A stretch of 64,000 nt of DNA from Candidatus Eutrophomonas brisbanensis (GCA_038141705.1 JAYQIQ010000004.1:423179-487178), one strand, 5' to 3'. Positions 50,087 to 61,245 are shown, counted from the first letter of the stretch. Translations and numbers: made by a program. The notes: generated by a model not told the origin, from the sequence alone.

Positions 50087-51277
50087 TTACTCGAAGCCTT
50101 TTGATACGACTCCGGCGCCCACGGTTCAACCACCCTCTCGGATAGCAAAGCGTAAACCCTCTTCCATCGCGATCGGCTGAATCAAAGTCACCTTCATCTG
50201 AACGTTGTCACCAGGCATAACCATCTCGGTACCCTCTGGAAGATCAACGGAACCCGTTACATCGGTAGTTCTAAAGTAGAACTGCGGACGATAACCATTA
50301 AAGAATGGTGTGTGTCGGCCGCCCTCTTCTTTACTAAGAACGTAAACCTCTGCATCAAACTTCGTGTGTGGGGTAATGGAACCTGGCTTAGCCAACACCT
50401 GACCACGCTCAACGTCTTCACGCTTAGTACCTCGAAGAAGAACACCAACGTTATCACCAGCTTGACCTTGATCAAGTAACTTACGGAACATCTCAACACC
50501 CGTACAGGTAGTCTTCTCCGTAGCCTTTAGACCAACAATCTCGATTTCATCACCAACCTTAACAATTCCTCGCTCAACCCTTCCTGTTACAACCGTTCCA
50601 CGACCAGAGATAGAGAATACATCCTCAACTGGCATTAGGAATGCCATATCCAGCGTTCTTTGTGGCTCAGGAATATAAGAATCAAGTGCCTCAGCAAGCT
50701 TCATAATTGCAGCTTCACCATGCTCACCCGCGTCACCCTCAAGCGCTTTCAGCGCTGAACCTGTAACAATTGGGGTATCGTCACCTGGGAAGTCATACTT
50801 AGAAAGTAGTTCACGAACTTCCATCTCAACCAACTCAAGCAACTCAGCGTCATCTACCATGTCCGCCTTGTTCAAGAACACCACAATGTAAGGAACGCCA
50901 ACCTGACGCGCCAACAAGATATGCTCTCGAGTCTGTGGCATTGGACCATCAGCTGCAGAAACAACCAAAATCGCACCATCCATCTGGGCCGCACCCGTAA
51001 TCATGTTCTTCACGTAGTCAGCGTGGCCTGGGCAATCAACGTGTGCATAGTGACGGTTCGCTGTCTCGTACTCCACGTGTGCTGTGTTAATCGTAATACC
51101 TCGAGCTTTTTCCTCTGGAGCATTATCAATCTGATCGTAACCCCTCGCCTCACCACCTGAAGCCTTCGCTAACACTGTCGTAATTGCAGCCGTTAGCGTC
51201 GTCTTTCCGTGGTCAACGTGACCAATGGTTCCCACATTCACGTGCGGCTTTGTCCGCTCAAACTTTCCCTTTGCCAT
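50087..51277 (-). CDS. tuf: Elongation factor Tu (tRNA-linked copy) with an in-frame TGA at 50126-50128
   Basis: Same 1191-nt length as the other copy. AGA(Arg) reads TGA 12 codons before the natural TAA at 50087-50089. Confidence 0.93.
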
Positions 51278-51323
51278 AATTCCAACCCTCAATTAATTAC
51301 TGCAAATTTTCAAAAAAAAAACC

Positions 51324-51398
<75 letters not shown>

Positions 51399-51424
51399 TA
51401 CGCGATACAAGCCAAATACCTCTG

Positions 51425-51498
51425 TGGAGCGGGTGAAGGGAATCGAACCCTCGTCGTAAGCTTGGAAGGCTTCTGCTCTACCATTGAGCTACACCCGC
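51425..51498 (-). tRNA. tRNA-Gly (TCC)
   Basis: GCGGGTGTAGCTCAATGGTAGAGC..CTTCCAA..GGTTCGATTCC..CGCTCCA. Confidence 0.98.
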
Positions 51499-51605
51499 CC
51501 GTGTACTTGGCCAAACCAATGCAACAAACAGCTTTGGGCCAATGACCGTTACCCTTCAAAACAACAAATCCTGCGCCCCAGTTACCTCAAAAAACTAAAT
51601 AATTC

Positions 51606-51690
<85 letters not shown>

Positions 51691-51704
51691 GAACGAAGCC
51701 GAGC

Positions 51705-51733
51705 ATTATGGATTTTTCGTTATTCTTTGTCAA
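51705..51733 (-). promoter_or_regulatory. sigma70 promoter of the tRNA-Tyr-Gly-Thr-tuf operon
   Basis: TTGACA (51733-51728)-N17-CATAAT (51710-51705). Confidence 0.8.
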
Positions 51734-51927
51734 TCATTAGCTTACGGAAATAGAGCGACTTTCCACGCTTTAGGGAGCCTTCAAATATACACCGTTAATT
51801 GGATAAACATGCTAACGTCATCGGAGCGTAATTGACGCGCCGACAGCCCAATCTTTAAAACCATGAATTAAGGCCTGAGAATCAATCAAGTAAAAAAATA
51901 ATCAACATATAAAACAGATATTTATAA

Positions 51928-53022
51928 ATGATAATCAAGGATATACAAACAATAGAAATTCGTATTCCGTACACGGTTCTAGGAACCGCAAAAACCGATG
52001 CCTGGGGAGGTAAACACTGGTCCACGGCCGACGCGCTCCTGGTTCGTATCGAAACCGCCAACGGAATTATTGGTTGGGGAGAAGCATTCGGATACAACTC
52101 AATAGCAGCCACCAAGACGTGCATAGAGTCTCTCATAAAGCCTCTTTGTCTTGATCAAAATATTGATAATATTCAAGAATTTATGACCACTCTTCAGAAG
52201 AAATTACATATATTTGGCCGCGGTGGTCCGGTCATTTTCGGACTATCCGGTATCGATATTGCTCTTTGGGATATTTGGGCCCAAGAGAATCAAAGCTCTG
52301 TTGCTCAACTCCTTGGGGGTTCTAATTTTCAGGAAATTGACGCTTACGCGAGTCTCGTGAGATACGAAGACCCGAAGACGGTATCGGATAACGTCAAGCA
52401 CTGCGTAGACTTGGGGTTTAAGTACGTGAAACTTCACGAGATAGATCTGCGCGCAATCACAGCAGCGCGACGAGCGGACCCAAACGTACATTTGATGCTG
52501 GATGTTAACTGTCCCTGGAATACTGACGAAGCAATAGAGATGGCTAGAAATTTCCAGGAACTGGACATAACATGGTTAGAGGAGCCAGTGTGGCCGCCAG
52601 AAGATCATTTAGCTCTAGCAAAAATAAGAAAAGAAGGTGGAATCCCCTTAGCAGCTGGCGAAAATGCAGCGACACTTAAGCAATACGAAACCCTGATGGA
52701 ATCCGGATCAATCGATTTTATTCAACCGAGTCCCACAAAAACCGGTGGAATATCTACTACTTCTGAAGTGTTTAAGCTGGCAAAAAAATACAATGTTCGT
52801 GTTGTTCCACACAGCTTCTATGAGGGGCCCGGTCTACTAGCAGCAATCCAGACTAGCGCAGCGCTATCTGACAAACCGCTTGTGGAATGGAGATTTTTTG
52901 ACTGCGAGGATCATCTCTATGGAGAAGAGATTGTTCCAAAAAACGGAAAAATGTTAGTGCCTGATGGCATTGGACTCGGACTTTCACCAAGAGAAGAAGT
53001 GATCAGTAAGTACAAGGTTTGA
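51928..53022 (+). CDS. Mandelate racemase/muconate-lactonizing (enolase superfamily) enzyme, K-x-H variant
   Basis: GWGEAF, LSGIDIALWDI; metal ligands LDVN, WLEEP and AGEN; VPH. Confidence 0.9.
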   Translation: MIIKDIQTIEIRIPYTVLGTAKTDAWGGKHWSTADALLVRIETANGIIGWGEAFGYNSIAATKTCIESLIKPLCLDQNIDNIQEFMTTLQKKLHIFGRGGPVIFGLSGIDIALWDIWAQENQSSVAQLLGGSNFQEIDAYASLVRYEDPKTVSDNVKHCVDLGFKYVKLHEIDLRAITAARRADPNVHLMLDVNCPWNTDEAIEMARNFQELDITWLEEPVWPPEDHLALAKIRKEGGIPLAAGENAATLKQYETLMESGSIDFIQPSPTKTGGISTTSEVFKLAKKYNVRVVPHSFYEGPGLLAAIQTSAALSDKPLVEWRFFDCEDHLYGEEIVPKNGKMLVPDGIGLGLSPREEVISKYKV

Positions 53023-53498
53023 CGGGTTTCAACCCCCGACTGCAATCCTAATATCAACTCAATTTCGACGGGAACCCCTCTTGGTAATTGACGCACGCCG
53101 ACGGCTGATCGCGCGTGCTGGCCAGCTTCTCCAAATATATCAACGAGGAGATTCGACGCCGCGTCGATGACTTTAGGTTGATCACAAAAGCCATCTACGC
53201 AAGCCACAAAGCCTGTCATTTTGATCACACGAGAGATCCGAGTTAGGTCATTAAGGTCCCGTTGCAAAACCGACAAACCATTTAATATACATAGTCGAGC
53301 AGCGTCCCTTCCGAGATCAATTGAACAATCTCTTCCCAGAGTTCCAGTGATCAGGCCCGAGTCCTCAGTCCAAGGCAACTGTCCGCTCAGGAAACAAAAA
53401 TCTCCGAATATTGCAGTCGGCACATAGCTAAACGCCGGCTCCCTAGGAGGCGGAGGGCTTATCCCAAGTTCGCTCAATCGCTGATGTATGTAAGACAA
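52917..53498 (-). CDS. RidA/YjgF-family protein; true end probably near 53028
   Basis: YVPT..FLSGQLP..G.LG, KMTGFV, AASNLL..FGEAGQHARSAVGV..LP...PVEIE. Confidence 0.88.
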   Translation of the reverse strand: MSYIHQRLSELGISPPPPREPAFSYVPTAIFGDFCFLSGQLPWTEDSGLITGTLGRDCSIDLGRDAARLCILNGLSVLQRDLNDLTRISRVIKMTGFVACVDGFCDQPKVIDAASNLLVDIFGEAGQHARSAVGVRQLPRGVPVEIELILGLQSGVETRQTLYLLITSSLGESPSPMPSGTNIFPFFGTISSP

Positions 53499-53543
53499 AA
53501 GGTTAATCCCAGGTTATCCAGATTCCAAAACATTGAGATATCT

Positions 53544-55052
53544 CTATTTTTCGCCTAGAGCATAACGCATGACGTGGAATATGTAGTTTTGCTCTTTCAC
53601 ACCTCTAAATAGATGGGCCATAGGCCCAACGGCATAAATTGCAACATCCTCGCCTCCATGCGTTTCCATGTCTAGTGGAACGAGCGATTCCTGGTGAAAA
53701 CCCGGGCTTTCACTGTCAATATCTGTGAGGTCCTTGCGACCAAGGAAGATCTCCTCTTTATAGACTTCGTCGCCTCCCTCCTCGAGATCGTGAAATCCAC
53801 GCCCGTTCATGTACCCAATGGTGGTGTAAGGCAGGCCATCCTTGGCAAGGACCGGGGCTGATTCACCTGAATGGATAACCTTTCCTAAAATGGGGTTCCC
53901 CCTTTTTGGGTAACCAGCCAATGTCATAACGTGGCTGTGGTCAGCTGTGACTATTATTAATGTTTCATTTAGATCAACCAATCGAACCGCTTCCTCAACT
54001 GCGTCGGAGAGTTCAATCGCATCATGCAGGGCTCGGAAAGCGTTACCCGCATGGTGCCCATGATCAATTCGCCCCGCCTCGACCGATAAAACGTAACCAC
54101 TTGAATGACTGCTCAAAAGTTTGATCGCTGCTCTAGTCATGTCCACAAGTGAGGGCTGGGTACTATCGTCACCTGCTCCCCTGTCAACTGAATACGCCAT
54201 ATGGCTCGAAGAAAATAACCCCAAAGTCGGCACTAAGCTCGAGGAATCTAAATTTTCTAACTCTTCTTTTGTATGCAAGAAGCGACTACCCGGAGATTTA
54301 TTTAACCACTCAGAAATCAAATCACGACCGTCTTCGCGGCGCCCTTCTGAAAAATACTTCGAGGATTCTTTCGGAATAAAGGCTCTGGCACCCCCACCGA
54401 ATACAACGTCGATCCCGTCTCCAAAAGGGAATTCAATTAGTTGGCGCGCAATATCAGGCACATTGGACTCTCGGGGCACATCCGCATCTGACTCCCAATC
54501 TCGATTTGAAGTGTGCGCATAGCACGCTCCTGGGGTAGCGTGTGTAATCCTCGCCGTTGAAACGACCCCCGTCGCCATCCCGGCCTCTTCAGCAAGTTCG
54601 AAAATGTTTTTCACACTATTTTTTTGTATACGATCCCAGCCACGCTCTCCACGCATCACCCTATCGTTGACACCAAAAACACCCCCATTTGTTTTATAGC
54701 CTGTGACCATCGCACTCATGGTTGGGGCGGAATCTGGAGTTTGCTGATCAGCGCTGTAGGTCTTGGATAATGCGATAAAAGGAAATCTCTCAAAAGACAA
54801 AAGATTCCCCTCACCATCCACGCCTCGGTTCTGTCCATCAAGGATTCGAGCAGCCGTGACTGTGGAAACGCCCATCCCATCACCCACAAACAAAATGATG
54901 TTCTTTGCAGGGGAATGTGTTAACTGAACTTGCAGCTCTCGCTGAAGCTCATTCCAAACATCCTGATAATTGCTTCCCGCCGAGGCGGTTACGGAAAACA
55001 AAGAAATCAAGGCCAAGGAACATAAATATCTGACATACATAGGCAAGAGCAA
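53544..55052 (-). CDS. Secreted alkaline phosphatase (PhoA family)
   Basis: Signal peptide ending TASA; KNIILFVGDGMG, PDSAP (catalytic Ser), HATP, EAGRIDHGHH, TADHSH, THGGEDV. Confidence 0.93.
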   Translation of the reverse strand: MLLPMYVRYLCSLALISLFSVTASAGSNYQDVWNELQRELQVQLTHSPAKNIILFVGDGMGVSTVTAARILDGQNRGVDGEGNLLSFERFPFIALSKTYSADQQTPDSAPTMSAMVTGYKTNGGVFGVNDRVMRGERGWDRIQKNSVKNIFELAEEAGMATGVVSTARITHATPGACYAHTSNRDWESDADVPRESNVPDIARQLIEFPFGDGIDVVFGGGARAFIPKESSKYFSEGRREDGRDLISEWLNKSPGSRFLHTKEELENLDSSSLVPTLGLFSSSHMAYSVDRGAGDDSTQPSLVDMTRAAIKLLSSHSSGYVLSVEAGRIDHGHHAGNAFRALHDAIELSDAVEEAVRLVDLNETLIIVTADHSHVMTLAGYPKRGNPILGKVIHSGESAPVLAKDGLPYTTIGYMNGRGFHDLEEGGDEVYKEEIFLGRKDLTDIDSESPGFHQESLVPLDMETHGGEDVAIYAVGPMAHLFRGVKEQNYIFHVMRYALGEK

Positions 55053-55169
55053 ATCGACTAGAATTTATGAATTGGACACATCCTAGCAAAGAAATATTAA
55101 GCTCAACCAGACGGACTCGGTATCGTCAGCAACACCCGAGAAGGCTTTGGTTTCGCGCAAAACACGATC

Positions 55170-55529
55170 TTGGATAAGACATTGAACGAAGATTTATTAG
55201 AAAAAGAGGAAAACGTAAACTGGATTTATAAGTCACCTGGACGCACGACGCTGCTGTCTCTAACAATCGGAGTTGCGACTGCATGGGTTAGCATAAGCTT
55301 GGCCGTCGAGAACACTGCGCTTGACTCATTTAGATACTTTGCGGTTTTTTCAGTGCTCTTACTCCTACCCATCCTATCAATCGCTGGAATCGCGATGATC
55401 GCGACAACTGTAAAAAACTCTACAAATCAGCTGTCGTTTGTAACTAAGCTCGGGGTTATCACAGCTTTTGCGCTTAATCTTTTTGCGCTTTATGTTTTTA
55501 TTCGTTTGATTTATCGAGTGTTATTTTGA
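55170..55529 (+). CDS. Hypothetical small membrane protein (about 3 TM segments)
   Basis: 119-aa ORF filling the gap before larA, three hydrophobic stretches, TTG start, no family motif recognised. Confidence 0.55.
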   Translation: MDKTLNEDLLEKEENVNWIYKSPGRTTLLSLTIGVATAWVSISLAVENTALDSFRYFAVFSVLLLLPILSIAGIAMIATTVKNSTNQLSFVTKLGVITAFALNLFALYVFIRLIYRVLF

Positions 55530-55587
55530 AAAATTAAGGGATAACTTTCAAAAAAATTATGAAACAACGCGGAAGAACCTTGAGCAA

Positions 55588-56877
55588 ATGAAAGTCAATT
55601 TAAATTTTGGGAAAGATCATCTCTCAGTGAATCTTGATGAATCCTGGAACGCCAGCATCATTCGAAAATCCGCAATGCCAATCGAAGCAGATCCGGCATT
55701 AGCGATGAAAAGAGCCCTAGCGGACCCAATTGGCAGTGAGAAGCTCTCGACCGAGGCAAAAGGCTCGAGGACAGCAACCATTTTGATCTGCGATGTTACG
55801 CGCCCAGTCCCCAACCACATTATCCTTCCATCCCTAATAAGTGAATTGCTTCAAGCTGGGATCCAAAAGGAATCGATAACCATATTAATCGCGACGGGCC
55901 TTCACCGGCCGAATGAAGGGGAGGAGCTTCGCCAGCTCATCGGAGATCCTTGGATACTAGATAACATCCTGATTCAAAACCACTATGCTAGAAATGATGC
56001 AGACCATATCACTTTAGGTGAGACCTCAAAAGGAACAGTGGTAAAAATTGATAAGCGATTTGTGGATGCCGACTTAAAGATCGTTACCGGCTTGGTAGAA
56101 CCCCATTTCATGGCCGGTTATTCTGGAGGAAGAAAGGTAATAGCTCCAGGCATCGCTCACGCAGATACCATCACCACATTCCATAATTTTAAATTCATGT
56201 CTCACCCTAATGCAGACACATGCGTGATAGATGGTAATCCGCTACACGAAGAACAGGTCGAGATTGTGAAAATGCTCGGAAAAGTTTTGTGTGTAAACAC
56301 AGTGCTCGATGAGAATCGAAATCTATCCTACGCAAACTTCGGAGAAATTATCGGTAGTCACATGAAAGCCGTAGAATTCGCTGAAAAGTATGTTTCTGTT
56401 GCAACAAAAGAAAAATTCGACGTAGTTCTAACGAGCGGAGCGGGTTTTCCACTGGATCAAACGTACTACCAAACCGTAAAAGGGATGGTTGTTCCCATGC
56501 AAATTCTAAAAGACGGCGGAAAATTGGTCATAGCCTCACAGTGCACTGAAGGAATGGGGTCAGAAGAATACAAAAATGCACAACGCCAACTTGTCTCCCT
56601 TGGTGTAAAAAAATTCTTGAAAAATATTGCACAAAAATCCTTTGCAGATATTGATGAGTGGCAAACGCAAATGCAAACCAAAACCATGGAAATAGGATCG
56701 ATCCACTTGTACGAATCGGGCTTAAATGATGAAGAAAAATCATTGACTGGCGTGGAAATTATTGATGATATTGAATTATTTCTAGCTGGCTGTATGAAAC
56801 AAAAAAATGATGGGACCTATCCGACTCTAGCAGTGATTCCAGAAGGTCCCTACGTTGTACCACTTTATAAGGGCTGA
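55588..56877 (+). CDS. larA: LarA-family nickel-pincer-dependent racemase/epimerase
   Basis: DVTRP, ATGLHR, EPHFMAGYSGGRK, TFHN, YQTVKG, IPEGPY. Confidence 0.88.
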   Translation: MKVNLNFGKDHLSVNLDESWNASIIRKSAMPIEADPALAMKRALADPIGSEKLSTEAKGSRTATILICDVTRPVPNHIILPSLISELLQAGIQKESITILIATGLHRPNEGEELRQLIGDPWILDNILIQNHYARNDADHITLGETSKGTVVKIDKRFVDADLKIVTGLVEPHFMAGYSGGRKVIAPGIAHADTITTFHNFKFMSHPNADTCVIDGNPLHEEQVEIVKMLGKVLCVNTVLDENRNLSYANFGEIIGSHMKAVEFAEKYVSVATKEKFDVVLTSGAGFPLDQTYYQTVKGMVVPMQILKDGGKLVIASQCTEGMGSEEYKNAQRQLVSLGVKKFLKNIAQKSFADIDEWQTQMQTKTMEIGSIHLYESGLNDEEKSLTGVEIIDDIELFLAGCMKQKNDGTYPTLAVIPEGPYVVPLYKG

Positions 56878-56906
56878 TTACGCAGCATTATTTTGGAGAC
56901 CAAAAC

Positions 56907-58202
56907 GTGATTACCGAAAAAGTAGAGATAGAAATCGCTGGCGGACTAAGTTTAGCGCTACCAAAAATGTTGCGGGTAAAACAGAAATTTAATGCAGACG
57001 CAATTCATGATGTTGCCCACGCTACCGGGGAAGCATTAAGAAAACCCGAAATTCGAGAAAAAATCAAAGCTGGCCAGGTAATAGCTGTAGGTTGTGGCAG
57101 CCGTGGAATTGCAAACATCAACGTTATTGCCAAATCGGTTATAAGCGAACTACTTGATCTAGGCGCTAAACCGTTCATTTTTCCATGCATGGGAAGCCAC
57201 GGAGCCGCGACCGCTAAAGGACAAAAAGAGGTGCTCGCGGGATATGGGATAACAGAAGAGACCATGGGCGTGCCGATTAAGGCCACCATGGATACGGTAG
57301 TTGTTGGACACCTAAGCGACGAAACGCCAGTACACATGGACGCGTATGCCGCATCGGCGGATGGCATTGTCGTTATCAATCGAATTAAACCGCATACGGC
57401 ATTTCGAGGAGCGACCGAAAGCGGGTTGACCAAAATGCTTGCCATTGGAATCGGCAAAATAAACGGTGCCGCCACCTATCATCGGCACGGTATGGATATG
57501 TTCCCAGAACTCTTACCTGAGGTTCGGGATGTGAACATCAAAAATAGGAATGTTTTGTTTGGCGTTGGTATTGTTGAGAACGCCTACGATCATACAAAGA
57601 TCATCGAAGCAATCCCAGCTGAAAAGATTGCCGAGCGCGAACCAGTCCTGCAAGCGCTCGCGAAAGAGAACATGCCAAGATTAAATTTTCCATCTGTGGA
57701 TGTGCTTATCATTGACGAAATGGGGAAAAATATCAGTGGCGCTGGATTTGACCCAAATATAACCGGACGCAATCGACGTGCTGTTGATTGGAATTCAGAA
57801 TTAGATGTTAAAAAAATTGTGGTTCTGGGACTGACTCCTGAGAGCCATGGAAACGCGACTGGAATTGGCGGCGCTGATGTCACGACTATGAAGCTATTTA
57901 ACCAAATGGACGTTTCTGCGACTTACGCCAACGTTATAACGTCGATGAACTTAGATGGCGCTGCTATCCCAATTGTAATGAATAACGACAACGAGGCGAT
58001 CAATCTCGCCGTTAAAACCGTAGTTCGAACAGCACCAGAGAACTGTAAGATTATTCGTATCAGAAACACGCTATCACTCGGAGAAATTTTCGTATCAGAG
58101 AATTTATCAGAAACAGTTCAATCGAATTCGAGCTTCTTCGAAATTATTTCAGATGCAAAACCATTTACTTTTGATGCAGACCAGAATTTAGAAGCATTCT
58201 GA
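56907..58202 (+). CDS. LarA-superfamily (DUF2088-like) protein, second divergent subfamily
   Basis: AVGCGSRGIANI, PCMGSHG, NRIKPHTAF, ESGLTKMLAIGIGK, ATYH, VGIVENAY, GKNISGAGFDPNITGR, GNATGIG; GGAG RBS; 29 bp after larA. Confidence 0.78.
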   Translation: MITEKVEIEIAGGLSLALPKMLRVKQKFNADAIHDVAHATGEALRKPEIREKIKAGQVIAVGCGSRGIANINVIAKSVISELLDLGAKPFIFPCMGSHGAATAKGQKEVLAGYGITEETMGVPIKATMDTVVVGHLSDETPVHMDAYAASADGIVVINRIKPHTAFRGATESGLTKMLAIGIGKINGAATYHRHGMDMFPELLPEVRDVNIKNRNVLFGVGIVENAYDHTKIIEAIPAEKIAEREPVLQALAKENMPRLNFPSVDVLIIDEMGKNISGAGFDPNITGRNRRAVDWNSELDVKKIVVLGLTPESHGNATGIGGADVTTMKLFNQMDVSATYANVITSMNLDGAAIPIVMNNDNEAINLAVKTVVRTAPENCKIIRIRNTLSLGEIFVSENLSETVQSNSSFFEIISDAKPFTFDADQNLEAF

Positions 58203-58314
58203 AAAATAAAATTACAAATAACCACCAACGTGAATTTAAAAGAAGATTTTTATAAATTTTTGTGATAAGGAAAAATTCACAAAAAGAAAAGACGAACTAT
58301 CTTGGTGCAAAAAA

Positions 58315-58360
58315 ATTTACACAGAGCAAATTTGAGTTCATCCACAAAATCTGTGGATAA
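58315..58360. promoter_or_regulatory. DnaA-box cluster in an AT-rich spacer
   Basis: Perfect TGTGGATAA at 58352-58360; TCATCCACA at 58338-58346 and ATTTACACA at 58315-58323 (one mismatch each to TTWTNCACA). Confidence 0.6.
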
Positions 58361-58476
58361 GATCATCAACCATTCAAACTTGTGAACGTACACCGGTTTT
58401 GATGATTGAGTTTTGTTATTCGTGCTTAAAAATTAATCAGTCGAAAAAAGAATTTAATGAACAAATTTAATTACTT

Positions 58477-59655
58477 ATGAGAATAACTAACATTGAGGCC
58501 ATTCCGTTAGAAGTTGAACTCAATAAAACAGTGTTCGACGCGAACTACACGATGAAGAACAAGCCCGCCTTATTGGTAAAAGTTTTTACAGATGAGGGAG
58601 TTGTTGGAATTGGCGAGGCCGCGCATTTTGGCGGGCCGATGGCGTCTACAGCGCAAGTAATTGAACATGAACTAAAAGAGTACCTCATTGGTTTAGATCC
58701 AACTCAAAATGAATATATTTGGGATGTGATGCATAAGCGCGCGTACAAACATGCGCGAGGCGGAATTGTCATTGCCGCTATCAGCGGGATTGATATTGCG
58801 CTTTGGGATATTAAGGGAAAAATTGCTGGGCAGCCTGTTTGGAAATTACTAGGCGGTTATAGAAAGCGAGTACCTGCTTACGCAACAGGTGGCTTTTATT
58901 CGGAAGGAAAAGATTTAAAGCAATTAAGCATGGAAATGCAGCAATACATTGATGCTGGTTTTCGCGCAGTTAAGATGAAAGTCGGAAGAAACAGTGCAAT
59001 CGAAATGTCTCCATTAAGAGTAACTGGTGATCGCGGCATAGCGGAGGTTAGTCATGAGGAAGATATTCAACGCGTCAAAACCGTCAGAGATACGATTGGC
59101 CCTAACATTCGTTTGGCGATTGATGCAAATGGTGCTTGGGATGTTGGAACCGCAATTTCGATGGCTAACAAGTTAGAAAAATACGACATATATTGGTTGG
59201 AAGAACCCATTTCCCCAGATGACATTTCAGGAAGCGCAGAAGTAGCTAGCAAAGTAAACATACCGATCGCCGGATATGAAACCTGTAGTTATGGGATTGT
59301 TGATTTTTCCCGATATATCAACGCAAGAGCTATCCATTTCGCACAACCTGATGTTGCTTGGGCGGGCGGTTTAACGGAATCTATGAAGATCGCTCACCTC
59401 GCTCTTTCGGCAAATATGCCAGTGGCACCACATATACATGGCTCCGCGGTCGCGGTCGCCGCTGGATTGCACTACCTGGGCGCGATAAGAAACGGAAGTA
59501 TGGCGGAAACCGTGTTCCCCGCGCATCCGTTAATGACCGATTTAGTTCAAGATCCTTTAACGGTTTGCTCGAAGACTGGAGAAATTGAACTACCCGATAC
59601 CCCAGGACTGGGAATTGAGTTAAATGAGAAAGTTGTGAATCGTTACAAAGCCTAA
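58477..59655 (+). CDS. Mandelate racemase/muconate-lactonizing (enolase superfamily) enzyme
   Basis: GIGEA, ISGIDIALWDIKGK, KMK, IDAN, WLEEP, AGYE, QPD, APH. Confidence 0.92.
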   Translation: MRITNIEAIPLEVELNKTVFDANYTMKNKPALLVKVFTDEGVVGIGEAAHFGGPMASTAQVIEHELKEYLIGLDPTQNEYIWDVMHKRAYKHARGGIVIAAISGIDIALWDIKGKIAGQPVWKLLGGYRKRVPAYATGGFYSEGKDLKQLSMEMQQYIDAGFRAVKMKVGRNSAIEMSPLRVTGDRGIAEVSHEEDIQRVKTVRDTIGPNIRLAIDANGAWDVGTAISMANKLEKYDIYWLEEPISPDDISGSAEVASKVNIPIAGYETCSYGIVDFSRYINARAIHFAQPDVAWAGGLTESMKIAHLALSANMPVAPHIHGSAVAVAAGLHYLGAIRNGSMAETVFPAHPLMTDLVQDPLTVCSKTGEIELPDTPGLGIELNEKVVNRYKA

Positions 59656-59677
59656 CAACAGGTGAACAATATCAGTC

Positions 59678-61149
59678 CTATTCTTTTGGCTTCCACTCAC
59701 GAGACTCTTGTTGCGCCCGCTTTAAATCATTGTCTTCAAGTTTTGAGGCAACATAATTTCTAAGCTTTTCAGCATCCTCCCGCTCTAATCCAGTAAGCGT
59801 CGACGCAGCCAAGTTGCTCCAAACATAAGCCCGCTTTAGGTCCTTAGAAACACCAACTCCGTCAAAATAGAACCATGCTAAGCGGTACTGCGCTCGAGCC
59901 TCTCCACGCTCGGCTGAAATTTGATAATAATTAGCTGCCCGCTTTGCATCTTTCGCGATGCCTTTCCCTTCATCGAGCATGTAACCCACTAGGTACTGCA
60001 CATACGGGCTACTACTTTCAACGATTTGGCTGTACCACTTATAGGCTCGAGCGAAGTCAACCGCCACTCCATCCCCACCAAAGAAAAAGATTGACCCAAG
60101 GGTCTCTTTCGCTGGCAAGTAGCCAGCACCGGCGGATTTTTCGAACCATTCAACTGATGATTTCAGATTTTTAGAGTACCGATACCATTTTGCAAACAAT
60201 ATCCGAGCATATACTTTGACTGCGGGTCGTTGAGCTCGGCCGCTTTCGAAAACCACTTAAACGCAGCAGATTCGTTCTTCTCCACTACCGATCCCTCGAA
60301 GTAGATCCAAGCTAACTGAGCGTAAACAGCATCGACGCCCTGATCGGCTGCCTGCACCAAATATTTAACTGCCTGACCTCGGCTCTTAGCTCGATCGTCG
60401 CCGGTTAACATCAAAAGCCCCAAACTCCCCGCAGCCTGCGCGTTGCCTTGCTTGGCGGCTAGCTCATAGAACTCGGCAGCTTTCTTCAAGTCAACTTTCA
60501 CCCCTTGGCCATTTTGATACATCCAACCGACCGCATACTGCGGATACGCCCTTCCGGCCTTGGCTGCTTTCTCATACCAAGTGAATGCATCTTTGTAATT
60601 TTTTTCACCTGATATCCCTGAAAATGCAAAGTATCCGACCATTTCTTGAGAATCGATGTCTCCAGATTTTGCTGCAATTAAGTAAAAATCCAGAGCCTTC
60701 CCAATATTTTTCTTCAGACCATCGGCACCCTTAAAGTATAAAGCTGCTGTAAGCTTGGCAGCATCAAGATCACCCGATTGACCAGCTTTTCCAAACCATA
60801 GAGCTGCCTTCGAAAAATCTTGATTCACATACTTTCCAGAGTAATACATGTTGCCGAGCATATTTTGCGCTTGCACGTAACCCTGATTCGCAGACTTCTC
60901 ATACCATCTTATAGATTCGGAAAAATCCTGAAGCACACCTCGCCCATGAAAAAAACTTTCGGCTAAATAAAACTGCCCCTCAGCACTTCCCTTTTCTGCG
61001 GACGAGCGAAACTCAGAGGTTGCTAAATCATAGTTCTCGTCTTTCAAGGCCCTTTTGCCAGCCTCAATATCCGCCAGAGAATTAAAGGGCAATAGGACCC
61101 CAGCAAAAACCAACAGGAGCAAAGATTTACTATTTATTAATTTCAACAT
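59678..61149 (-). CDS. Secreted Sel1-like repeat protein (11 repeats); -1 frameshift at 60168-60172
   Basis: Signal peptide and repeated AQ..LG..Y..G.G...D...A..W...AA..G units. One extra A joins ORFs 60163..61158 and 59678..60256 in the middle of repeat 8. Confidence 0.9.
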
Positions 61150-61245
61150 TCCAACCATCCGGCCAACACAAAATTAGACACTGCAATCTCAGGGGCGCTA
61201 CCAAGCACCACCACGTGTACACAATCGAGAGAATAAAATAACGTT

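Follow-up and report, generated by a model that had tools for sequence, protein, structure and literature searches.

The window analysed here, a stretch of 64,000 nucleotides from Candidatus Eutrophomonas brisbanensis (GCA_038141705.1, JAYQIQ010000004.1:423179-487178), carries two adjacent genes, termed P1 and P2 in the following, which encode members of the LarA superfamily, whose members employ nickel-pincer nucleotide (NPN) as their cofactor. The explanation favoured here, with a probability of about 0.58, is that P1 and P2 are two independent NPN-dependent isomerases from one operon, P1 being a lactate-type enzyme and P2 a member of LarA-homologue group 22 which acts on another substrate. 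In a first-pass annotation of the window both genes had been described, together with the enolase-superfamily gene P3 that follows them, as a candidate undescribed nickel-pincer hydroxy-acid pathway. The open reading frames (ORFs), the 29-bp gap between P1 and P2 and the internal ribosome binding site were recovered exactly as given there, with a GGAG being located 8 nt ahead of the GTG start codon of P2. The window equals C4:423179-487178 of a Burkholderiales genome (2.13 Mb, six contigs, one of them C4), and near-identical sequence is frequent in estuary, lagoon and salt-marsh metagenomes. The central features are the following:

55588-56877, plus strand: P1, predicted canonical LarA-family NPN-dependent 2-hydroxy-acid racemase of the lactate/short-chain type (429 amino acids; assigned by Pfam, motifs and structure match)
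56895-56898, plus strand: Shine-Dalgarno sequence GGAG within the P1-P2 gap, read from the sequence
56907-58202, plus strand: P2, group-22 LarA homologue (NF052515), predicted NPN-dependent isomerase (431 amino acids)
58203-58476: AT-rich P2-P3 spacer of 274 bp with a DnaA-box palindrome at 58338-58360
58477-59655, plus strand: P3, enolase-superfamily protein, predicted acid-sugar dehydratase or cycloisomerase of the mandelate racemase type (392 amino acids)

P1 is a canonical LarA homologue

P1 possesses both domains of LarA, Lar_N (PF09861, 4.9e-59) and LarA_C (PF21113, 6e-16), as identified with Pfam, and the closest solved structure is that of Isosphaera pallida LarA (9EID/9EIA), which was matched over its full length with an E-value of 1e-90. 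All P1 motifs listed in the first-pass annotation were found to be present, namely D69/R72 (DVTR), H106 (GLHR), H173 and K183 (PHF..GGRK), H199 (TFH) and Y294/Q295/K298 (YYQTVK). Alignment to 9EID places R72, H106, H173, K183, H199 and Y294/Q295/K298 onto LarA Arg75, His108, His174, Lys184 (the NPN tether), His200 (the nickel ligand) and Tyr294/Gln295/Lys298, respectively. In 20 orthologues (52-63% identity) no variation occurs at the residues for cofactor binding, catalysis and carboxylate binding, nor at those of the substrate pocket.

This pocket is formed by F174, M175, W358 and Q359, which occupy LarA positions 175, 176, 358 and 359. Published specificity rules assign F, F, W and E/Q to lactate racemases (PMC11770544), L, M, W and Q to I. 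pallida LarA, a broad-spectrum enzyme (PMC11851776), and E, V, A and H to gluconate epimerase (PMC11770544; PMC11851776). Compared with these rules, the F-M-W-Q pocket is of the lactate/short-chain type, and P1 is best read as a predicted lactate or short-chain 2-hydroxy-acid racemase rather than as a sugar-acid epimerase, which speaks against the earlier idea of two C2-epimerases that feed a dehydratase.

P2 belongs to LarA-homologue group 22

P2 was matched by the NCBIfam model NF052515 ('nickel pincer cofactor-dependent isomerase, group 22') with 522.4 bits (E 6.7e-157, cut-off 400), whereby the match covers model positions 1-390 of 392; the Pfam domain Lar_N is weakly matched (27 bits). 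A sequence search of the PDB with P2 returned nothing up to E = 1, hence P2 is tied to the solved LarA structures by fold comparison only. For this, an AlphaFold2 model of P2 (pLDDT, the predicted local distance difference test score, 93.5) was compared with the PDB using Foldseek, and each of the top 17 matches was either LarA itself or one of its homologues (E-values of 8e-12 to 1e-8, TM-scores 0.46-0.56), with the next matches having E > 1e-3. The identity between P2 and these solved LarA structures is 12-18%. P1 and P2 represent two very different LarA subfamilies, as had been proposed.

The GSHG, KPH, TK and YH motifs pointed out earlier in P2 turned out to be real, with H98 locating to MGSHG, H163 to KPH, K176 to ESGLTK and H192 to YH, and all of them being kept family-wide in a set of 38 diverse homologues. 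This set extends to homologues of 37% identity; residues without any exchange in it include M95, S97, H98, K161, E171, S172, G173, K176, H192, K274, D282 and N342, and R66 and H163 are conserved to at least 90%. Profile-profile alignment (hhalign) of P2 with the P1 family places R66, H98, H163, K176 and H192 onto LarA Arg75, His108, His174, Lys184 and His200, and these residues match P1 R72, H106, H173, K183 and H199, with the nickel-ligand histidine following 16 residues after the lysine tether. At the position of LarA Asp72 P2 carries Gly63, and the C-terminal domain of P2 was not alignable with LarA by hhalign, the ligands Tyr294/Gln295/Lys298 not being recognised. As these five aligned positions are kept and the C-terminal domain is unalignable, P2 would thus be equipped to hold NPN and to carry out proton-coupled hydride transfer, with the substrate probably being bound in a different way. 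P2 is not a plain lactate racemase. The first-pass annotation had named two plain lactate racemases, missing lar genes and a lack of conserved pairing as findings that would speak against its own proposal, and none of them was encountered.

Within group 22, P2 falls into a sub-clade from Burkholderiales (66-73% identity) which is marked by A100, H143, I182, Q249, I269, M272 and F281 and which travels with P1-type LarA. Clustering of the whole family gives 1,120 clusters at 50% identity (E < 1e-30) and, at 90% identity, over 6,000. Group 22 was listed as being of 'unknown function' by Desguin et al. 2020 (Sci Rep 10:18123), and the neighbours reported for it are SDR, ILVD/EDD dehydratase, LarE, TRAP transporter, sugar kinase and IclR genes (Desguin et al. 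2020). The earlier term 'undescribed' consequently holds in one respect, as the P2 branch is uncharacterised, and fails in another, as the branch is catalogued both there and as NF052515. A census of 37 diverse group-22 loci identified iron-dependent alcohol dehydrogenases in five, LarC in four, TRAP transporter components in four, three and two and zinc-dependent alcohol dehydrogenases in three, and neither a dominant partner nor an enolase was found in these 37 neighbourhoods. With no dominant neighbour, the wider group-22 family gives no clue to the substrate of P2.

Supply of the NPN cofactor

LarA homologues all depend on larB, larC and larE (larBCE) for their cofactor. As had been noted, these three genes are absent from the window, and the genome search suggested in the first-pass annotation recovered all of them at C4:977-980 kb (C4:977189-979615), approximately 0.5 Mb away from the P1-P2 pair. 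The models TIGR00299, TIGR00268 and NF033503 were matched with 178, 218 and 265 bits, all above the curated cut-offs, and judged by these genes the genome makes the NPN cofactor. The larC and larE parts form a single ORF of 670 amino acids (C4:976955-978967; L012:10956-12968), whereas relatives possess separate genes for proteins of 452 and 282 amino acids. This fusion is to be treated with caution, as the assembly contains indel lesions elsewhere.

Directly 5' of larC-larE a second group-22 gene is located (C4:975604-976883; L012:9605-10884), referred to as the type-A paralogue, which shows 50-61% identity to P2 over its two pieces and from which genes for an ILVD/EDD dehydratase and an RraA-like aldolase diverge. 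Here, type A is interrupted by an in-frame stop and a frameshift. Its classification as a pseudogene was dropped, since the stretch is an open frame in four metagenome assemblies independent of each other, meaning that intact type-A copies exist and that the lesions are either private to this assembly or errors.

A nickel transporter, which was likewise to be sought, was not evident, as the genome contains neither NicO/HoxN nor CbiM and gave one weak match to HupE/UreJ (28 bits, C4:85477-85845).

Conservation and expression of the P1-P2 pair

For high-GC loci, ORFs were called with a filter on the GC content of the third codon position. A phyletic survey covered 201 genomes of the order Burkholderiales. 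P2-type genes (66-72% identity) were identified in 21 of the 201 genomes and P1 orthologues in the same 21 and in no others. Nearly all of these 21 also carry type A, and one further genome possesses type A only, without P1. P2 directly follows P1 in about 12 genomes from three families, with gaps of mostly 22-60 bp, of about 210 bp in two and of a larger size in one. In eight genomes of two families P1 and P2 are unlinked, and in one chromosome that is complete the distance between them is 4 Mb. One of the unlinked P1 genes is clustered with larC, larE and larB, all on the same strand, and elsewhere type A is found beside larC and larB.

A second survey, seeded with P1, yielded 80 metagenome contigs, about 16 of which have a group-22 gene downstream, the gap usually being 17-51 bp or an oppositely oriented AraC gene residing in between. 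Many others among the 80 contain larBCE, while a P2 gene is missing from the 6 kb around P1. Of the group-22 genes with at most 58% identity, which occur in many phyla, none has a LarA neighbour except on one Paracoccaceae contig. The pairing first noticed in the window is hence real and recurrent in one set of lineages, yet not obligatory.

A metagenome contig of 41% GC (L193:4547-8399) carries a more distant P1-like gene (53% identity) and a group-22 gene (58%) at a distance of 30 bp, followed by an aldo-keto reductase gene. A description of aldo-keto reductases that depend on the nickel pincer appeared in 2026 (PMC13524815).

Expression of the locus is documented by four salt-marsh metatranscriptomes, whose contigs cover P1, P2 and P3 at 95-99% identity. 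The P1-P2 junction is crossed by RNA contigs in all four runs (e.g., 55891-58030 and 56800-58141), i.e., P1 and P2 are co-transcribed in situ. None of the contigs from the four metatranscriptomes spans the whole P2-P3 spacer (58203-58476).

P3 and the P2-P3 spacer

P3 consists of MR_MLE_N (1e-23) and MR_MLE_C (5.8e-64) as identified with Pfam. The residues K166-x-K168, D216, E242, E268, D292 and H319/H321, which were placed by motif position and not by structural superposition, provide the KxK motif, the three acidic metal ligands and the Asp-His pair of the mandelate racemase subgroup. P3 reaches none of the NCBIfam equivalog cut-offs (AraD_Arch 281 versus 650, galactonate dehydratase 224 versus 311), and its best PDB match is 5OLC.

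In the spacer ahead of P3 two DnaA-box-like sequences form a palindrome at 58338-58360, TCCACAAAATCTGTGGATAA, which occurs only once in the 2.13-Mb genome, with 0.03 chance matches being expected in the window. Two Burkholderiales families keep it at the orthologous position, among them genomes with 60-68% GC. Contigs without P3 still contain it, in many cases followed after a few bases by a third box, TGTGGAT, and it must as a consequence be more than a P3 operator; it may represent a DARS/datA-like DnaA-box cluster.

In the larger genome G003 a 217-aa (amino acid) ORF, a gene for an AP_endonuc_2 protein and a 132-aa ORF reside between P2 and P3, and the locus L019 has these three genes and the palindrome but no P3. 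The genus to which the window belongs has lost the three intervening genes, by which P3 was brought next to P2. P3 orthologues (70-73% identity) occur in eight of the 201 genomes, all eight carrying the pair, and are adjacent to P2 only in the window's own family, whereas the P3 orthologues of family f28 either lie 95-160 kb away from P1-P2 or reside on a separate contig. The constant neighbours of P3 are the 132-aa ORF and a Sel1 gene, not the LarA genes. Considering the palindrome in the spacer, the lack of a spanning RNA contig, the unlinking in f28 and these other constant neighbours, P3 is a separate transcription unit and not part of the P1-P2 operon; neither a continuous transcript nor a junction free of a potential regulatory region was found, as would be expected for a single P1-P2-P3 operon. 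The earlier proposal that the pair funnels its products into the adjacent enolase is thus unsupported, the conserved non-coding element and the absence of a linking RNA contig separating the genes and their adjacency being a result of gene loss.

Further neighbours of the pair

Around P1, P2 and P3 the window contains the following features:

51928-53022, plus strand: E2, second enolase-superfamily enzyme (Pfam MR_MLE_N and MR_MLE_C)
52917-53498, minus strand: RidA/YjgF-family protein, convergent with E2 (YjgF_endoribonc, 1.3e-18; Ribonuc_L-PSP)
53544-55052, minus strand: PhoA-type alkaline phosphatase
55170-55529, plus strand: hydrophobic ORF of 119 amino acids directly 5' of P1, status uncertain (from the ORF listing)
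59678-61158, minus strand: Sel1-repeat gene, split into two overlapping ORFs

Farther upstream tRNA genes and the tuf/rpoBC ribosomal cluster are located, and on the downstream side, besides the Sel1-repeat gene, a Bat/VWA cluster. An Rfam scan of 51000-60500 identified three tRNAs and no riboswitch in either spacer; promoter and terminator scans performed no better than on shuffled sequence and were not used as evidence. The 119-aa ORF matched no Pfam or NCBIfam family, its sole homologue is a weak one in L118, and RNA contigs start inside or after it. The two ORFs of the Sel1-repeat gene (331 and 192 amino acids) correspond to one protein of 482 amino acids in relatives, which reveals a frameshift in the assembly.

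The second enolase and RidA are present as first reported. E2 orthologues (at least 48% identity) were found in 13 of the 201 genomes, 12 of which carry the pair and one (G099) only the group-22 type-A paralogue, and E2 adjoins the pair in five loci. The catalytic residue set of E2 is unusual, with K168-L-H170 replacing the KxK that is usual in the mandelate racemase subgroup and with a lysine in 'QPSPTK' where P3 has the aspartate of QPD. RidA orthologues (44-54% identity) reside near the pair in ten loci. The RidA ORF of the window has a C-terminal extension of about 40 amino acids which is absent from its relatives, and overlaps the 3' end of E2 by 105 bp (52917-53022).

In soil relatives the pair occurs together with a lactate-permease-family transporter, an AraC regulator, psiF, RidA, zinc-dependent alcohol dehydrogenases and, in some cases, NicO. 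In the genome under study, a lactate-permease gene with an adjoining AP_endonuc_2 gene exists in two similar copies, at C1:344636-352111 and C4:1652287-1659939; the C1 lactate-permease copy is frameshifted, and the duplication could be redundancy or contamination in the assembly. In several relatives psiF is located directly 3' of P2 (L018:10356-10613; L019:10329-10649), in one of them with a 4-bp overlap. The gene for the PhoA-type phosphatase adjoins the pair in the window, and a PhoX phosphatase gene is found in a soil relative (L019:580-2007). From these PhoA, PhoX and psiF neighbours, the pair may be linked to phosphate starvation.

None of the pair loci examined contains a sugar kinase, a 2-keto-3-deoxy-acid aldolase or a sugar transporter. 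Taken together with the permease-type neighbours, this points to small hydroxy acids (C3-C4), not hexonates, as the substrates.

Proposed function and alternative explanations

Based on these findings, P1 and P2 are suggested to function as separate NPN-dependent 2-hydroxy-acid isomerases that are expressed from one bicistronic operon and that would both be loaded with cofactor made via the fused larC-larE and larB, 0.5 Mb away. P1 would racemise short-chain, lactate-type acids, and P2 would employ the same cofactor chemistry, with His98 and His163 as catalytic residues, Lys176 as tether and His192 as nickel ligand. As the substrate-binding domain of P2 differs, P2 is assumed to invert a hydroxy acid other than that of P1. 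The pair would hence allow the cell to use both stereoisomers of small imported hydroxy acids and would be part of a small hydroxy-acid utilisation regulon, to which AraC and lactate permease would belong in relatives with larger genomes, whereas P3 would be a separately transcribed neighbour whose adjacency came from gene loss in a streamlined genome.

Several observations weigh against this explanation. For P1 the best NCBIfam model, LarA lactate racemase NF033504, was matched with 357.5 bits and thus below its cut-off of 460, P1 stays below the cut-offs of the malate racemase models, too, and its identity to the nearest characterised enzyme, I. pallida LarA, is only about 40%. The metatranscriptome contigs carry no strand information and could include DNA. 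In several lineages, enolase genes are repeatedly found in the surroundings of P1-P2 (P3, E2, the enolases of f28, and L046), and a looser metabolic link of the pair to dehydratase enolases is possible. Moreover, the perfect co-occurrence of P1 and P2 derives from only about six families and may reflect common ancestry and a shared cofactor need; given so few families and the universal dependence on larBCE, the phyletic match is suggestive and no proof of a joint function.

These enolases are the basis of an alternative which is unlikely, though it survives best among those considered, namely that a 2,3-dihydroxy or sugar acid present as the 'wrong' stereoisomer is a substrate for epimerisation by P1 and/or P2, that P3 and/or E2 dehydrate the product and that RidA assists on the resulting enol or enamine. 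The restriction of P3 orthologues to pair-bearing genomes (eight of eight) and of E2 orthologues to pair- or lar-bearing ones, several of them adjoining the pair, is in line with such a pathway, as are the non-orthologous enolases which flank the pair in f28 and the P1-like gene in the Paracoccaceae contig, and a 29% association of COG4948 (enolase superfamily) with LarA-homologue group 3 was reported (Desguin et al. 2020, Table S1). Against it stand the conserved DnaA-box element between P2 and P3 which no RNA contig crosses, the three genes that follow P2 in G003 and L019, the distant P3 of f28, and the P1 pocket, which is hydrophobic and lactate-type, not that of a sugar-acid enzyme (PMC11770544); wider group-22 neighbourhoods lack enolases, and the pair loci lack kinase, aldolase and sugar transporter.

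Doubtful, too, is an NPN-dependent hydride transfer by P2 other than C2 inversion, e.g., epimerisation at another carbon or an isomerisation of the aldose-ketose type. Such a reaction would fit the unalignable C-terminal substrate domain, the LarA constellation of D72 and Y294/Q295/K298, which is not recognisable in P2, and the invariant residues that P2 has of its own (K274, D282, N284, R288 and N342), and unusual chemistry is expected in divergent LarA-homologue groups (PMC7583248; PMC12611868). However, P2 keeps both catalytic histidines and the equivalent of the carboxylate-binding arginine as true racemases and epimerases do, and the TRAP transporters, alcohol dehydrogenases and ILVD/EDD dehydratase next to group-22 genes suit carboxylic hydroxy acids. 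Equally doubtful is it that P1 and P2 form an obligate unit, either as a complex or by performing two consecutive inversions of a small 2,3-dihydroxy or dicarboxylic acid (e.g., tartrate or a C4 aldonate), whose product feeds E2 and P3. The earlier suggestion of a heteromer, by which P1 and P2 would act as one enzyme in an obligate hetero-oligomer, found no support and is very improbable, since despite the constant P1-P2 order with gaps of 10-60 bp (three families and many metagenome contigs), the internal ribosome binding site, the identical phyletic pattern and the unexpected octamer seen in other LarA homologues (PMC12611868), each protein keeps a complete, independently conserved active site, the genes are unlinked in eight genomes or separated by an oppositely oriented AraC gene in some contigs, P1-type genes often occur alone with larBCE, and most group-22 genes lack a LarA neighbour.

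Relation to known systems

Both proteins belong to catalogued families, and for the pairing of LarA homologues itself a literature search found no published report. Among the systems described so far, P1 comes close to I. pallida LarA (LarAIp, LarAH2 or Sar; 9EIA, 9EID), a broad-spectrum short-chain 2-hydroxy-acid racemase with which P1 shares the NPN, catalytic and carboxylate ligands (Arg, Gln295, Lys298 and Tyr294). The pockets differ in their first residue (L-M-W-Q versus F-M-W-Q), where P1 has the phenylalanine of Lactiplantibacillus plantarum LarA in place of Leu174 of LarAIp, and P1 has a group-22 partner gene, whereas none was reported for LarAIp. The L. plantarum system (LarA, 5HUQ, with larBCE) appears, at the level of residues and fold, to share with both P1 and P2 the Lys-tethered NPN site, the histidine nickel ligand and the two catalytic histidines; it differs in that the lar genes are here located away from P1-P2 and that larC-larE is one ORF. 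The published context of group 22 (COG0129 30%, LarE 30%) is matched by the type-A gene beside larC-larE, larB and the ILVD/EDD dehydratase; it includes no adjacent second LarA homologue, while P2 has P1 next to it. P3, finally, resembles acid-sugar dehydratases and cycloisomerases from the mandelate racemase subgroup, such as 5OLC (deposited under the name 'galactonate dehydratase'), 4GGB and 5XD7, with both MR_MLE domains, KxK, metal ligands and the Asp/His pair in the expected order, and differs from them in scoring below every curated equivalog threshold.

Significance

What is known of nickel-pincer chemistry is unchanged by this finding. Its value lies with group 22, which is one of the largest LarA branches lacking an assigned reaction and on which the pair gives a handle, as the association with a lactate-type LarA, AraC and lactate permease makes small hydroxy acids the class in which to look for the group-22 substrate and offers concrete genes to express and assay. 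Should the doubtful case of an obligate unit feeding E2 and P3 hold true, LarA group 22 would for the first time have a substrate and a physiological role, and uncultured Burkholderiales of estuaries and soil would possess a catabolic route that depends on the nickel pincer.

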